Below, one piece after another: positions 9,100 through 63,872 of a DNA stretch of 64,000 bases; positions within the stretch are counted from its first letter, which is position 1; each line of letters starts with the position of its first letter. The position numbers were made by a program, and so were the translations under genes. This stretch comes from Escherichia coli (GTDB taxonomy: Bacteria; Pseudomonadota; Gammaproteobacteria; Enterobacterales; Enterobacteriaceae), in the NCBI RefSeq assembly GCF_003018255.1, contig NZ_CP027440.1. One strand, given 5' to 3'. The notes under the pieces are model-generated. The model worked only from the letters and a program-made list of their open reading frames with translations. It made no database searches and had not been told where the DNA came from.

Positions 9100-9168
9100 T
9101 GTTCTGGTTCAAGATTAGCCCCCGTTCTGTTGTCAGGTTATACCTCTCAACGTGCGGGGGTTTTCTCT
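9100..9168 (+). ncRNA. rdl: Rdl antisense RNA (antitoxin of Ldr), approximate ends
   Basis: Segment caagattagcccccgttctgttgtcaggtt...cgtgcgggggttttctc matches my memory of RdlA and ends in a GC stem plus U-run; lies antisense to the ldr 5' leader. Boundaries not determined. Confidence 0.5.
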
Positions 9169-25295: not shown

Positions 25296-25475
25296 GATGG
25301 TGGTGGAGGAAGGATTACTCAGCGCTGCGCGCTTCGCCCTTCGGGTCGTTGCCTGCGGCCACGCTCTCTCGCTGGCGCTCGAGTCGAACCCTGGTCGAAG
25401 CTTCTCATCCTTCCCCGCTTGGGCAGAATATTTAATCGCGGATTCGTTTGAGAGTTCACGGACTTTTGAAAGTGA
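25296..25475 (-). repeat. tyrT-distal rtT/tpr-type repeat unit (about 180 bp) starting with a degenerate copy of the tRNA-Tyr 3' end
   Basis: Unit begins tggtggtggaggaaggatt, one mismatch from the tRNA 3' end tggtggtgggggaaggatt; lies transcriptionally downstream of the tRNA array on the minus strand. Confidence 0.55.
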
Positions 25476-25560
<85 letters not shown>

Positions 25561-25594
25561 AGGGGTAATTCAAATTTTGAGGTAATGCTTGAGA

Positions 25595-25679
<85 letters not shown>

Positions 25680-25713
25680 AGGGGTAATTCAAATTTTGAG
25701 GTAATGCTTGAGA

Positions 25714-25798
<85 letters not shown>

Positions 25799-53535: not shown

Positions 53536-56007
53536 TTAAAAATCAGCCTGACTCGGGATCAGTTTTTGCCAGATGGCTGAAACGTATTTTGCCTGGTAAC
53601 GCGCATCGTGCAGCGCGTTATGGCGTTCACCTTCGAATGGAATAGTCGTTCTTGCGTCGAAATCCATCACCAGTCCCAGAGCAACCATCGTTCTTACATC
53701 GCGATCATTGGTGTAACGCCACGGGCAGGGGATCCCCTGCCGTTCATATGAACGGCGTAAAATCACGTTGTCGAAAGTTGCACCGTTACCCCAGACCTGA
53801 ACAAAAAATTCACCGGAGTTTTCGTCGATAAATTCCCGGAATTGCAGCAGTGCATCATCCAACGGGATTTCATCGGTCAGAATGGCGGATTGTGCTTCGC
53901 GTGACTGTTTCAGCCACCACTTAATGGTGCCCCGATCGATGACCCCGCCTGCGGTTTCCAGATCGATAGTTTTGCTGAATTCTGGCCCCATCTCTCCGGT
54001 TGCCGGATCAAAAAACTTACCGGCTATAGAGTTTATTGGCGCATCAGGATTTTTTCCCATTGTTTCAAGGTCAATCATCAGATGGTGCCACAACCTGCTG
54101 GTGGATGTGATTTCATGATGACCGTTCACTTTAATTAAGGGATTTGCTGTCTCGCCAGTTTTATTATCGCTGGCGTGATACTGATCGCTGACAGTGTTCT
54201 CCTTGTGCAGATGTTCAGTGCCTTCCATTTCCTCCGGATCATTTTCCTGAGCTTCAGCCTGATTCTCTTCATCGAATGTTTCCTGGTTGGTTGCGTTCCC
54301 CATCACCGCACCACAGTCAGGACAGTTGCCGCCACCGGTCTGACCGCATGCGGTGCAAACTTTTTCCGGTTCTTGTTGCACTTCTGGTTCAGGCAGTTTC
54401 GTTTCTGGCTCGTTTTGTAACGCATTTGGACTGTTTTGTTCCGCTTTCTGGTCGTTTTGTTCCGATTCGGGCTGGTTCTGGTTCACAGAATCGCGGGTTT
54501 CAATCCCCTTAACCCATTTCGGATCATTCGGGTCGCTAATCCCTTCAACAAATTCACCACGTGATGCAGCAAGCAATTTATCGGTGTCAGGCTGGCTGAT
54601 ATTGGCTGCCTGCATAATTTTGTTTACTTCGTCAGCGGTAACTTTTACCGGCTCTGGTTGTTCTGAATCTTCTGCGGTATCTGTATTTTGCTGTAAGCCC
54701 GTATATGTGCCATTTTTTCGGGCAAAATATTCTTCTTTTGAGATTTCGGTACCACCGGCAGCCAGCGCCTTGTCCAGGCCAGAAAGTTTGTTTGCCCTGC
54801 CGTATTTTTCCCCGTCCTTATCGGTAAAGACGAAATAAAACGGTCCTTCACGCTCTACAGATGGTTCAGCTTCCACCAGGATTTCATTTTTTTGAGAATT
54901 GGATTCCGCCGTCTCCACTGGATCAGTTTGTGCTGCTGACGACAGGATAGCATCAGCAGAGCTCTGGTCTGTTTCTTCATGTTCAAACACGCCCTTTGTC
55001 GTCAGGTATTCGCTGATGTATTTGTTCAGTGCAACGGGATCTTTGTGAATGTCGATCGGGCGCTCACGAACAAGGCCAAAAATAGTCTGACGGTCATAGC
55101 GAAGCGCATCAGGCTGTTTGCGCATTGATGCAGAGATACGCTTCCAGTCTTCGCGATCCTTGTCGATAACCTCATTTTTAGCCCAGCGATGGATGGTACC
55201 GTCAATGTTTCCGGCATCAATATCACCAGGCCAGAGAGCGTAAGCCAGCTCTTCATCCAGGGTTTTCCATGTCTGCTTGTATTCGCGACGAATGGCAGTA
55301 GTGACAGGGTTGATTTTTGCTGCTGAGTTTTCAGTGTGCTGTTGGTTGACTCTGGCGCGGGCCAGCTCAACAACAGAAGTATGTTTCCCGGTTTCTTTTC
55401 GTTCTGCTTCGCGACGTTTTTTCCAGGTGCGCATCTCTGCCTGAATTTCTGGCCATTTGGCACCAGGCTTACATTTATGCTTAACCCACCCGATGGCATG
55501 CAGTTTAATCTCCGGATACATGGCGTTAACTTCTGGCATTTTCATCAACGCTTCAACGATATGTCCGTCGAAGGTTGCCATGTCTTCCTGCAACAATTCC
55601 TGTGCGCTAATCACCATATCAACGGTGATGTTTTCACATGTGTCGAACTTAACCATGACAGCGTTCTGTACTTCAGGGGACAGCTTGTCAAAAGTGACGT
55701 TCATCGGATCTGATTCAGTCTCAACCGGGACAAAGGAAGCAGACGCCTCATCCCAGCGGTTTTCCAGCATATATTCAGCATCCCAGGAGTCGAGGGCTGG
55801 GCGGGGTGTACCGGGTTTATCCTCACAGACAAGAAATTTATAAGCGCAGTCCTGAGCAGCCGGATAATGTTCAAGGAATTGCCAGTGAAATTTTGCGCGG
55901 GCGCGACGTTCATCACCGGCTTCAATGGCTGTGGCCACAGCAACAGCGCCCTCGTTTTTTATTGCCTGTTCGTCAGGAATGGCGGCGCAAATAAATATTT
56001 TACTCAT
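53536..56007 (-). CDS. Large prophage exonuclease-like protein with C-terminal DnaQ-like (DEDDh) 3'-5' exonuclease domain
   Basis: ORF track 823 aa; C-terminus has motifs in order DLETMG, FDNVIL, HNALHDARY; CxxC...CxxC (CTACGQTGGGNCPDCG) mid-protein; acidic Q/E/N/P-rich linker. Sits in the exo/recE position after xis. Confidence 0.75.
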   Translation of the reverse strand: MSKIFICAAIPDEQAIKNEGAVAVATAIEAGDERRARAKFHWQFLEHYPAAQDCAYKFLVCEDKPGTPRPALDSWDAEYMLENRWDEASASFVPVETESDPMNVTFDKLSPEVQNAVMVKFDTCENITVDMVISAQELLQEDMATFDGHIVEALMKMPEVNAMYPEIKLHAIGWVKHKCKPGAKWPEIQAEMRTWKKRREAERKETGKHTSVVELARARVNQQHTENSAAKINPVTTAIRREYKQTWKTLDEELAYALWPGDIDAGNIDGTIHRWAKNEVIDKDREDWKRISASMRKQPDALRYDRQTIFGLVRERPIDIHKDPVALNKYISEYLTTKGVFEHEETDQSSADAILSSAAQTDPVETAESNSQKNEILVEAEPSVEREGPFYFVFTDKDGEKYGRANKLSGLDKALAAGGTEISKEEYFARKNGTYTGLQQNTDTAEDSEQPEPVKVTADEVNKIMQAANISQPDTDKLLAASRGEFVEGISDPNDPKWVKGIETRDSVNQNQPESEQNDQKAEQNSPNALQNEPETKLPEPEVQQEPEKVCTACGQTGGGNCPDCGAVMGNATNQETFDEENQAEAQENDPEEMEGTEHLHKENTVSDQYHASDNKTGETANPLIKVNGHHEITSTSRLWHHLMIDLETMGKNPDAPINSIAGKFFDPATGEMGPEFSKTIDLETAGGVIDRGTIKWWLKQSREAQSAILTDEIPLDDALLQFREFIDENSGEFFVQVWGNGATFDNVILRRSYERQGIPCPWRYTNDRDVRTMVALGLVMDFDARTTIPFEGERHNALHDARYQAKYVSAIWQKLIPSQADF

Positions 56008-56102
56008 TGTGTTTAAACCTCATTACAGATTTCAGGGTGAACGAATCCCTGCCATTGCTGGCATTTTTAATCCGTTGGTATGGCGTTAATATGGCTGGCG
56101 GG

Positions 56103-56291
56103 TTATCCAGCCGGTGTTTCGTTATTCAGGTACAGCGATACTTTGTTTAACGGGAGACATTCACCGGAAATTTTTTGCTCGTCTCTTGCCTGATGGCAGG
56201 ATTCTTTACTGGCATAAATTCCGGTAATCACATTCTGTGGCTCACCCGTTATAAGAAAAACCGTCATTACCAGTGCAAATGCAGAAGTCAC
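56103..56291 (-). CDS. Small prophage early protein with N-terminal hydrophobic segment (62 aa), function unknown
   Basis: ORF track; GTG start preceded by SD ggaggg; start overlaps the upstream gene stop as GTGA; N-terminus MTSAFALVMTVFLITG. Confidence 0.55.
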   Translation of the reverse strand: MTSAFALVMTVFLITGEPQNVITGIYASKESCHQARDEQKISGECLPLNKVSLYLNNETPAG

Positions 56292-56476
56292 TGCTGCCCT
56301 CCGAAAATGCCAAGTTTAAGAAGGGCAATTCTGGAGAGTATGGAATTATCATTGAGAAGATAAGGCTCATATTTTCTCATCCTGATGGCGTCCTCAGTAA
56401 ACTCCCGGTTACTGAGCAGAATACCAATATTAAAACACCCTTCAGACGTATTAACGTTTGGTAGTGACGTTTCCAT
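56288..56476 (-). CDS. Small prophage early protein (62 aa), function unknown
   Basis: ORF track; ATG preceded by SD gagga at 7-nt spacing; coupled to the downstream gene. Confidence 0.55.
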   Translation of the reverse strand: METSLPNVNTSEGCFNIGILLSNREFTEDAIRMRKYEPYLLNDNSILSRIALLKLGIFGGQQ

Positions 56477-56650
56477 TATCGCGTCCTCAACAATGAATTT
56501 TGTGATGTGGTGCCTGGTGCCTCCAGGTGACGTTAACCAGTTAACAATTAACGCCGGATTGTTAGTTGATGTCTGTTACGCCAGTAAAAGACCGCTTGTT
56601 TTAACTGTTCCGCGTGCGCTTAGCCGCATTCACCGCATCACAAAATACAC

Positions 56651-56680
56651 TTTAAAAATGGCGGATATCCATTTCCGCCG
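56651..56680 (-). terminator. Putative rho-independent terminator (minus strand)
   Basis: Stem ggcgga/tccgcc with 8-nt loop, followed on the minus strand by ATTTTTAAA. Confidence 0.45.
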
Positions 56681-57004
56681 AATCACCAGAAAAGTGATAA
56701 CAGAGGTTGTTGTGGCGGTGTTGTCACTCAGGCGTATGGTCAACCTGACAACCCGGTGCATTTTCTGGAGCAATGGAGGAAGCCCCAGCCATACTTACCG
56801 CCGCGCCATTTCGCGGATTGCCACAACCGGAAGCGCACGATCGAATTACATTTAACGACGACATATACAGAGAGACTAACTTCGCCGAGCGCTTTCGTGT
56901 TGTGTGCCTGCTTTTAACCACGTCAGGCGAGGTGGACCTGTTATTCCCCAACAACAAGGAGCTTGTTAATCTGGATATCCCCAACAACAATAAGAGTATT
57001 GAAT

Positions 57005-57448
57005 GTGATCGCTGAATTAACGGCAGCAATGACGGCTATTCGTGAAACCGCTCAGATTACAAAACTAATGAACGAGGCAAAAACTCAAGCTGAAGTAAAT
57101 GCGGCTATTGGTGAACTGAACTCAAAGCTTGCATCTATTCAGCACGAATGCGTGTCTCTCGTTGAGCTGGTGAGCACTTATCAAGAAATAAATGCTTCTC
57201 TCAAAGCTAAAATTGCAGAATTTGAAAACTTTGAGGCTCAGACGGAAGGTTATATCCTTAACCAACTTGAGTCGGGAACTTTTGTGTACTCGAAGGAGGT
57301 AACCGTGAACGGCGGCAGCATAATCATGCATCTTTGTCCAAAATGTTTTGGACAAAAGATAGTATCGATACTTCAACCATTCCCGGTTAGAGAACATGAG
57401 TTTTTCATAAAAGCAGGTGCCTCTACTGTGAAAATCAGTTTCTTATGA
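57005..57448 (+). CDS. Hypothetical prophage protein on the opposite strand to flanking early genes; predicted coiled-coil N-terminal half, Cys-containing C-terminal region
   Basis: ORF track 56963..57448; protein-like composition while overlapping minus ORFs look antisense-like (L/S/R/F-rich). Start uncertain (GTG 57005 with weak SD aagag; alternatives TTG 56963, ATG 57029). Confidence 0.5.
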   Translation: MIAELTAAMTAIRETAQITKLMNEAKTQAEVNAAIGELNSKLASIQHECVSLVELVSTYQEINASLKAKIAEFENFEAQTEGYILNQLESGTFVYSKEVTVNGGSIIMHLCPKCFGQKIVSILQPFPVREHEFFIKAGASTVKISFL

Positions 57449-57632
57449 ATAAAAATCCGGATTATGTATCGCCTCCATCTATTGAGGAGTTGGCCAGAAA
57501 ACTGAACGGCAATCTGTAGATTGTTACTGTTATGGATATCCAGATTGTTAAAGAGCATGCCGGATGCTTGCTTGTGTCCGGCGCGTGTGCACCAGTTCTC
57601 CCCGTGGAGGATTCCTTAACTACCAGACTTCA

Positions 57633-57785
57633 TTAGTCAGAGTTTCTTGCTAACCAGCGACGCGCGCCAGCTTCAGTTTTAAACGTTTTGCTTCTGGTAT
57701 ACGTCATCGCGGTAAACGTGCCGTCCTGGTTGGGGAATACTCCGCATACCAGAGATTCGTTGTTGCCAAGATTGAGCGTATCCAT
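57633..57785 (-). CDS. Small prophage protein (50 aa), function unknown
   Basis: Not in ORF track (<60 aa). Minus ORF MDTLNLGNNESLVCGVFPNQDGTFTAMTYTRSKTFKTEAGARRWLARNSD with SD tgaggt 4 nt upstream of ATG. Confidence 0.5.
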   Translation of the reverse strand: MDTLNLGNNESLVCGVFPNQDGTFTAMTYTRSKTFKTEAGARRWLARNSD

Positions 57786-58080
57786 GTTGACCTCATTTGC
57801 CCTTAACGCCGGGTCGCGGAACTAAAAACCTGCTGCGCTGTTATACAAAGTGTTCCCGCCGTCATGTTCATACGCCTCGGGCTGGCTACTTAACCCCTGA
57901 CCACTGCCTGGTAACTCGAAGTATTGCCTGGCGTTCTGTGGGGCGGGGTGGGTTGGTGATATAATGTACCTGCTGTTCATTAATGTAAAGTACTTTTAGT
58001 ACATTTTTGTGAGAGGTAAAATATCAGGAGGGGATGAGAGGAGCATAAACCCGGAGGGAAGCTACCGGATTTATGCAGAT

Positions 58081-58500
58081 TCAGGAGGCTTTTTGTTTTT
58101 TCTTTCGCGCTAATTCTTCATAAATTGCGTTGTACTTCTGTTTTTTCTCCTCAAGAGTTTTTAAAAGTTCATCAGTTTCACTGTCAGGGAGTTCATCAAG
58201 AAGTTCAATGATGATTTTTTGCTTCGGACTTAACTCCTGATAGAAACGCAGGCTTCCGCTTTCTTCAGTGTCCTCCCCCAGAAGGTAAGTTGGTGTTGTT
58301 CCGATAAGTGCTGCCAATTCTTTCAGTTTCTCTCGACGGGGAATTGCCTCTCCATTAAACCATTTACTAACCGCTTTGGGTGTTAGCTTCATTCGACGGG
58401 CAATTTCTGCCTGCCTTCCGTGTTGTTCAAAGCCAGCATTTTCACAGGCTAGCGCAAGCCTGCTGGCGAACTCTTTACGCGCTTCATCTTCATGAACCAT
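58081..58500 (-). CDS. Prophage repressor (CI functional analogue, XRE-type HTH, no S24 peptidase domain)
   Basis: ORF track 139 aa; HTH region RRMKLTPKAVSKWFNGEAIPRREKLKELAALIG; divergent from a cro-like gene; acidic C-terminal half. Confidence 0.75.
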   Translation of the reverse strand: MVHEDEARKEFASRLALACENAGFEQHGRQAEIARRMKLTPKAVSKWFNGEAIPRREKLKELAALIGTTPTYLLGEDTEESGSLRFYQELSPKQKIIIELLDELPDSETDELLKTLEEKKQKYNAIYEELARKKKQKAS

Positions 58501-58579
58501 AAGTTCAATGATATTTGCTATTGAATGTACTGTCAGTTCTGTTATATTGTGTACTCAAAGTTCACATTGTGAGGGTGAT
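58501..58579. promoter_or_regulatory. Divergent promoter/operator region of the immunity module (pRM-like and pR-like)
   Basis: Palindrome TTCAAT-N10-ATTGAA at 58504-58525; + strand -35 ttgaat (58521-26) and -10 tatatt (58543-48); minus strand -35 ctgaca and -10 tatcat placing the start within a few nt of the repressor ATG (leaderless). Confidence 0.55.
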
Positions 58580-58846
58580 ATGAGCCATACAACACTTGCA
58601 GATGTAATCAAAGCAGTTCGCGTTTCTGTTGTAGCCGATGTTTGCGGTGTCAGCCAAAGAGCAATCTACAAATGGATGAATAATGGAAAATTACCGCGCA
58701 CAGAATATACAGGCGAAACAAATTACGCTGAAAAAATTGCTCTGGCATCAAACGGATTATTTTCTGCTGATGCGGTTTTGACTATTGGCAGGATTAAGCC
58801 TACAGCGAATGAATCACTGGCGGTGAACAATGAAAATCACCCCTGA
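58580..58846 (+). CDS. Cro-like HTH regulator (YdaS-like)
   Basis: Internal ATG of ORF 58508..58846 with SD gagggtg; HTH ADVCGVSQRAIYKWMNNGKLP; divergent from the repressor. Confidence 0.7.
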   Translation: MSHTTLADVIKAVRVSVVADVCGVSQRAIYKWMNNGKLPRTEYTGETNYAEKIALASNGLFSADAVLTIGRIKPTANESLAVNNENHP

Positions 58847-63506: not shown

Positions 63507-63659
63507 AAACGGTTTGCGGGGAAAGAAGAGTTAAGTAGAATTGCTGCGGGTGCTTGAGGCTGTCTGCCTCGGGCATGCCGCCGTAAGGCAGACAGAGAAA
63601 AGCCCCAGTTAACATTACGCGTCTTGCAGGACGCTTAACATTAATCTGAGGCCCAATCT

Positions 63660-63872
63660 ATGCTTCACAAACGTAGGTTAGCCTCTTACGTGCCGAAAGG
63701 CAAGGAGAAGCAGGCTATGAAGCAGCAAAAGGCGATGTTAATCGCCCTGATCGTCATCTGTATTACCGTTGTTGTGACGGCACTGGTAACGAGGAAAGAC
63801 CTCTGCGAGGTACGAATCCGAACCGGCCAGACGGAGGTCGCTGTCTTCGTAGACTACGAATCTGAGAAGTAA
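63660..63872 (+). CDS. mok: Mok-like reading frame (N-terminally extended frame required for hok translation)
   Basis: ORF track 70 aa MLHKRRLASYVPKGKEKQAMKQQKAM..., parallel to recalled K-12 MokC; same frame as hok. Confidence 0.5.
   Translation: MLHKRRLASYVPKGKEKQAMKQQKAMLIALIVICITVVVTALVTRKDLCEVRIRTGQTEVAVFVDYESEK
63717..63872 (+). CDS. hok: Hok/Gef-family type I toxin (HokD/RelF-like, 51 aa)
   Basis: MKQQKAMLIALIVICITVVVTALVTRKDLCEVRIRTGQTEVAVFVDYESEK is near-identical to recalled HokD/HokC; SD aaggagaag upstream of ATG 63717. Confidence 0.85.
   Translation: MKQQKAMLIALIVICITVVVTALVTRKDLCEVRIRTGQTEVAVFVDYESEK

Follow-up and report, generated by a model that had tools for sequence, protein, structure and literature searches.

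The region at approximately 56–60 kb of the window (the whole 64,000-nucleotide stretch of E. coli DNA analyzed here) constitutes the immunity region of a lambdoid prophage of the Qin/Rac type. Its minus strand carries, in order, a gene for a 139-aa repressor, a 295-bp gap, ydfA (encoding a DUF1391 protein), dicB and a recE-like exonuclease gene; cro-like, ydaT-like and replication (O/P) genes are transcribed divergently on the plus strand (Table 1). The gap holds the site at which a preliminary description of this DNA had proposed an antisense promoter directed at the 3′ end of the repressor gene. Strain OkiPb01694 is 100% identical over 1.1 kb spanning this site, and thousands of E. coli genomes contain sequence similar to that 1.1 kb.

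Several other features were recorded in the window. A hypothetical plus-strand gene (57005..57448) lies between ydfA and dicB, opposite to the leftward operon; it is shortened by a 1-bp deletion in a T-run (~57401) relative to NZ_AP042564, in which it measures 516 nt. Just upstream of dicB, a minus-strand match to STnc100 (56444-56661) fell below the Rfam threshold (33 bits against a gathering score of 47, E 9e-5). No match to DicF was returned anywhere in the window by the Rfam scan; K-12 Qin and phage Tritos have dicF at that location. Full-score Rfam matches, all unrelated to the flagged site, were obtained for the sok antitoxin RNA (63548-63722, plus strand), the rdlD antitoxin RNA (9101-9166, plus strand) and RtT RNA with three tandem tRNA genes (25298-25798, minus strand).

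Table 1 Features assigned in the immunity region, with positions in the window. Promoter, operator and stem-loop assignments are predictions.
Feature	Position	Strand	Remarks
dicB	56288..56476	-	Leftward operon
ydfA (DUF1391)	57633..57785	-	First gene of the leftward operon, which leads to dicB
ydfA leader downstream of PL	57786..57954	-	C-rich 5′ end, without significant fold
Extended -10 TGATATAAT	57957..57965	+	Without -35; predicted start near 57972, inside OL1
PL -10 CATTAT	57961..57966	-	In 41 of 45 distinct relatives; CATCAT in 4, as in HK022
OL1 TGTACCTGCTGTTCA	57965-57979	.	Fills the PL spacer; covers the predicted plus-strand start; counterpart of HK022 oL TGTACTTAAAGTTCA
PL -35 TTTACA	57984..57989	-	In 44 of 45 distinct relatives; identical to the HK022 pL -35
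OL2 AGTACTTTTAGTACA	57989-58003	.	Abuts the PL -35; counterpart of HK022 oL AGTACCAATAGTACA
Pyrimidine-rich, G-poor tract	58004..58042	-	Clade-specific sequence after the hairpin
12-bp stem with 10-nt loop	58043..58076	-	Begins 5 nt past the repressor stop codon
Repressor gene, 139 aa	58081..58500	-	HTH_3 N-terminal domain, DicA-like C-terminal part
A-rich Lys codons KKKQK	58088..58105	-	Repressor C terminus (CDS ends KKKQKAS-stop); invariant in relatives
OR region, three operators	58493..58564	.	Overlaps PRM-like and PR-like promoters
OR3 TGAACCATAAGTTCA	58493-58507	.	Identical to HK022 oR3
PRM-like promoter CTGACA-17-TATCAT	58536..58508	-	Promoter scan
PR-like promoter	58521-58548	+	Promoter scan
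OR2	58526-58540	.	GWAC-N5-GTWC match
OR1	58550-58564	.	GWAC-N5-GTWC match

Repressor, operators and leftward promoter

Residues 1–75 of the repressor are 59% identical to the DNA-binding domain of HK022 CI, and the rest of the protein resembles DicA (30% identity). A domain search gave the HTH alone, with no S24 peptidase domain in the repressor. Judged by its sequence, the protein is chimeric, joining an HK022-CI-like DNA-binding domain to a DicA-like remainder; at the DNA level, the match to HK022 covers the N-terminal half of the repressor gene and the repressor/cro intergenic region. Given the 59% identity of the DNA-binding domains, the repressor is predicted to bind the OL and OR sites and to repress leftward transcription. 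Because an autocleavage domain is absent, derepression would need an antirepressor instead of RecA-stimulated cleavage, as described for DicA and Rem (PMC10448788).

The three OR operators have centre spacings of 33 and 24 bp, as in HK022. The PRM-like promoter ends 7 nt before the repressor ATG (58500), so a leaderless repressor mRNA is predicted, for which lambda cI and PaaR2 provide precedents (PMC8630535). In view of the chimeric repressor and an OR3 identical to HK022 oR3, prophages of this kind might show cross-immunity with HK022.

The suggestion in the preliminary description that recurrent GTAC motifs could be operator half-sites was borne out by comparison with the HK022 GenBank record X16093, which annotates the pL -10, the pL -35, two oL and three oR sites: the motifs match the annotated oL and oR sites in sequence, number and spacing. 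Each operator is 15 bp long with the core GWAC-N5-GTWC. This core has seven matches in the 64 kb compared to 2.28 expected, a count reached by none of 100 shuffles, and five of the seven fall in the two regions flanking the repressor gene (two in OL and three in OR). A third OL operator was not found in 57780-58120 even with one mismatch allowed, save for a weak site at 57843.

A promoter scan identified TTTACA-17-CATTAT on the minus strand (57989..57961), pointing toward ydfA...dicB, and returned the same site in one relative. The promoter lies directly 3′ of the repressor gene and is directed away from it into the early-left operon, with a predicted start near 57954. From TATAATGTAC to AGTACATTTT, the window aligns almost base for base with HK022 pL/oL. 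The centres of OL1 and OL2 are 24 bp apart, covering the PL spacer and the edge of the -35.

Conservation was assessed in 45 distinct variants drawn from E. coli genomes, phage Tritos and 80 viral contigs; the viral-contig scan gave close relatives only, with repressors 93–100% identical. Among these 45, GWAC was retained in 178 of 180 half-sites and the central pentamer took 15 forms, while the -10 read CATTAT or CATCAT in every case. Preserved half-sites and promoter together with variable centres form the pattern predicted by operator and promoter constraint. The module thus presents, at the sequence level, each of the properties that can be checked for an HK022-type OL/PL, and we regard it as an ordinary member of that type that would be expected to function like HK022 OL/pL. 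In such a scheme, a repressor dimer on each of OL1 and OL2 would occlude PL, which would otherwise drive ydfA...dicB, and repressor bound at both OL and OR would silence the toxic leftward operon in the lysogen.

The ydfA leader is kept in ~3,750 of 5,426 complete E. coli genomes, and its homology to these genomes breaks at 57953-57969, that is, at the predicted PL start. The break is probably a mosaic joint, as expected for an exchangeable immunity module. The leader has 19 C, 5 G and no T among its initial 34 nt, and its predicted fold is not more stable than those of its shuffles (z +1.2); the C-rich 5′ end may be a Rho-loading region. A putL-like antitermination RNA in the leader was discarded on the basis of the same fold score and the lack of similarity to the putL sequences of HK75 and HK022. 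A 52-aa minus-strand ORF (57822..57980) was likewise not taken as a gene, as its start lies upstream of the one predicted for PL and it crosses indel-rich sequence.

Stem-loop after the repressor gene

The inverted repeat reported between the repressor gene and PL is real, although the coordinates first given for it (58046-58076) begin about 2 nt late and one mismatch had been left out. Its 12-nt arms (58043-58054 and 58065-58076) are 92% complementary, with one mismatch and 10 nt between them. Compared to shuffles, the fold has z scores of -5.5 on the minus strand and -4.1 on the plus strand, and the 12-bp stem in the minus-strand RNA has a predicted energy of -18.5 kcal/mol. In all 10 distinct hairpin variants, the minus-strand RNA (-15.8 to -18.0 kcal/mol) is more stable than the plus-strand RNA (-8.4 to -14.7 kcal/mol), which argues for a hairpin of the repressor transcript rather than of a plus-strand RNA. 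The stem is conserved in the variants and the loop varies in sequence and length (10–12 nt). All stem differences are transitions, which leave G.U pairs in the minus-strand RNA but produce C.A mismatches in the plus-strand RNA; the covariation consists of no more than three such events, among relatives that are all close (repressors 93–100% identical).

The repeat could also be read at the DNA level, as a protein-binding palindrome serving as an extra operator or as the site of another regulator. The arms are constant in 46 variants while the spacer varies, and a third OL site is located close to the end of cI in HK022 (PMC8053113). We consider this reading highly improbable, since the arms do not resemble GWAC-N5-GTWC even with one mismatch, a spacer ranging from 10 to 12 nt would shift the phasing of the half-sites, and arm variants that are all transitions pairing as G.U on one strand are the signature of an RNA. 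The preferred assignment is a 3′ stem-loop of the repressor mRNA, from which we infer a role as a terminator, insulator or stabilizer. Most likely, it would end or stabilize the repressor mRNA, thereby preventing read-through across PL into ydfA-dicB.

The term terminator is the weakest step in this assignment. A terminator scan of both strands in the window and in one relative returned no site, in part because the loop is longer than the 8 nt that the scan allows. The stem is followed by UCCUCUCAU in the window, with no adjacent U-run, and by UUCACUUUAU in the main clade, whose copy is found in O104:H4 and in O157:H7 Sakai/EDL933. The hairpin could instead be a stabilizing or processing 3′ end, with Rho-dependent termination taking place in the C-rich, G-poor tract downstream and in the PL leader. 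Beyond the missing U-run and the negative scan, the base composition agrees with such a role: the 41 nt past the hairpin (58004-58044, minus strand) contain 16 C, 13 T and 2 G, and the PL leader combines its C-rich first 34 nt with a lack of structure. Set against this is UUCACUUUAU in the main clade, which right after the stem could allow weak intrinsic termination. We view Rho-dependent termination as a serious possibility, while leaning against it; the tract after the hairpin is possibly either a Rho-loading or a weak U-tract region.

Taken together, the homology to HK022, the motif statistics, the conservation pattern and the strand asymmetry of the hairpin lead us to read 57955-58080 as an OL/PL control module, belonging to a lambdoid prophage of the Qin/Rac type, and next to it the 3′ end of the repressor mRNA, with a probability of roughly 85%. 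Repressor binding, promoter activity, termination and control by an antirepressor are what we infer from this reading.

Plus-strand TATAAT and proposed antisense transcription

The extended -10 TGATATAAT named in the preliminary description is present on the plus strand at exactly the position reported. The motif TGNTATAAT occurs once in the window compared to 1.73 expected by chance, and at least one copy was found in 81 of 100 shuffles, so the motif alone is not above chance. Its TATAAT (57960-65) overlaps the minus-strand CATTAT (57966..57961) with a 1-bp offset as a near-palindromic mirror image, and the proposed antisense promoter is probably the reflection of the PL -10. The TG extension was found in 6 of the 45 distinct variants, all from the small clade of the window; the others read GTATATAAT or GCATATAAT. 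No plus-strand -35 accompanies TGATATAAT, and the terminator scan gave zero terminator-like sites after it.

Only four of the six PL -10 positions match the consensus, whereas on the plus strand the hexamer TATAAT is perfect and carries the TG; in the clade of the window, the plus orientation may therefore not be negligible. Since a perfect TGnTATAAT is a credible promoter, a plus-strand transcript may appear upon derepression. Relative to the hypothetical plus-strand start, OL1 spans positions -1 to about +8, so this promoter should be shut in the lysogen too, and, where TG is present, some divergent initiation would be possible once the repressor leaves OL1. The overlapping opposite-strand -10 elements have the geometry of symmetric promoters and predict starts ~18 bp apart.

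A plus-strand RNA running from ~57972 into the 3′ end of the repressor gene could lower repressor expression by antisense pairing or transcriptional interference; in a refined version, with OL1 over the start, the promoter would be active only upon derepression, as a commitment lock. Besides the perfect TGnTATAAT, this proposal can draw on the correctly spaced TG in six of six clade variants despite nearby indels and -10 changes, on a plus-strand TATAAT or TATGAT also in the main clade and in HK022, and on the 1-bp offset, because starts ~18 bp apart are the commonest bidirectional geometry (PMC12825309). We nevertheless consider it unlikely. Chance alone yields one TGnTATAAT per 64 kb, the TG is missing in 39 of the 45 distinct relatives in addition to the absent -35, and conservation of the hexamer is already accounted for by the overlapping PL -10 and OL1. 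No plus-strand terminator is present, the hairpin is weaker on the plus strand, and the fold of the 139-nt plus-strand sequence is marginal (z -1.95). The Rfam scan of the whole window at gathering threshold placed no RNA family in the flagged region, and at E<=10 the sole overlapping match in 55800-58700 was a chance snoRNA (E 1.4). A literature search for antisense RNA opposite a lambdoid repressor gene found no relevant report.

The T-rich run and the small ORFs noted downstream of the plus-strand -10 are both present. The run, at about 58090-58105, sits within the repressor CDS, 13 nt from the stem, as the complement of the Lys codons, and its invariance in relatives follows from its being coding sequence. 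Both the 4-codon and the 16-codon ORF described as the only ones to follow exist (ATG 58034 and ATG 58073), but so does a 34-aa GTG-start ORF (58009..58113). The latter was rejected as a small protein because its frame is broken by 2- and 3-nt indels in relatives; the 4-codon mini-ORF with its SD motif was set aside as unconserved even within the clade and absent from phage contig L015.

Antisense RNA or interference as the main reading of the site therefore gives way to the leftward PL, homologous to HK022 pL, as the principal promoter: the TG is confined to 6 of 45 variants, a plus-strand terminator is lacking and the hairpin favors the minus-strand RNA. For the clade of the window, a more specific scenario can be formulated, in which a 3-bp deletion made TGnTATAAT and the resulting bidirectional PL serves as a repressor-gated antisense lock. 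Once the repressor is off OL1, RNA polymerase would proceed rightward through the whole repressor gene in antisense toward cro, as there is no terminator in its path; less repressor would be resynthesized, committing the prophage switch. We judge it quite improbable that this is a regulatory device, and, to our knowledge, no repressor-gated antisense lock has been reported in immunity regions of the HK022 or DicA type.

Implications and comparison with known systems

The result mainly corrects annotation, in that a gap left unannotated in about a thousand E. coli genomes holds the switch element of ydfA-dicB. The pairing of HK022-type operators with a short, DicA-like non-cleavable repressor represents clear domain shuffling between immunity systems, and the site illustrates that a -10 box, when nearly palindromic, may be assigned to the wrong strand. 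Divergent firing in the TG clade, if it occurs, would be a natural case in which promoter symmetry gives rise to a repressor-gated antisense transcript.

Lambda OOP is antisense to the 3′ end of cII (PMC7067206) and resembles the arrangement originally proposed here, in which a short-range antisense RNA would be directed against the 3′ end of a regulator gene. Whereas OOP is transcribed from a promoter of its own to a defined terminator, a plus-strand terminator and a conserved plus-strand structure are missing at this site. Symmetric bidirectional sigma-70 promoters (Warman et al.; PMC12825309) share the opposite-strand -10 elements with a 1-bp offset. Bidirectional promoters are reported to account for 19% of detected RNAs in E. 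coli, the commonest class having starts ~18 bp apart (PMC12825309). This geometry at PL makes divergent initiation mechanistically possible, although here the plus side lacks a -35, has TG in a minor clade only and, like the minus side, has a predicted start.

The closest counterpart in promoter and operator DNA is HK022, which has the same -35 (TTTACA), two 15-bp oL operators 24 bp apart (TGTACTTAAAGTTCA and AGTACCAATAGTACA), oR spacings of 33 and 24 bp and an identical oR3. HK022 CI reportedly binds OL and OR cooperatively and loops between them (PMC8053113). The two systems differ in the -10 (CATCAT in HK022 and CATTAT here) and in the repressor (a CI ORF of 235 aa compared to 139 aa with a DicA-like C-terminal part). 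The OL3 of HK022 has no counterpart here and a stem-loop occupies that space; PL leads into ydfA-dicB and not nun, with no putL-like sequence.

In gene organization, the closest parallel is K-12 Qin, in which DicA represses dicBp, described as lambda-PL-like, at the same position (PMC10448788). There, the order is dicA, dicBp and ydfA-ydfB-ydfC-dicF-dicB. Both loci have a short non-cleavable repressor whose C-terminal parts are homologous and without a cleavage site, then a short gap with a PL-like promoter and operators, a homologous ydfA leader and the ydfA...dicB operon; dicF is missing in the window. In K-12 dicA (L003, about 1880-1915), an AT-rich hairpin, AAAAGATAAC...GTTATCTTTT, is visible by eye in the alignment shortly past the stop codon. 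DicA-type modules may generally have a stem-loop separating the repressor gene from PL. A direct alignment of the window to dicA-ydfA of K-12 Qin was confined to ydfA and its leader, the promoter-operator DNA being unalignable, so data on dicBp are not transferable base by base. The K-12 operator Oc is TTGTTAGTCATAACTAACAA, compared to GWAC-N5-GTWC here, and by analogy the PL of this prophage would be the functional counterpart of K-12 dicBp with a different operator specificity.
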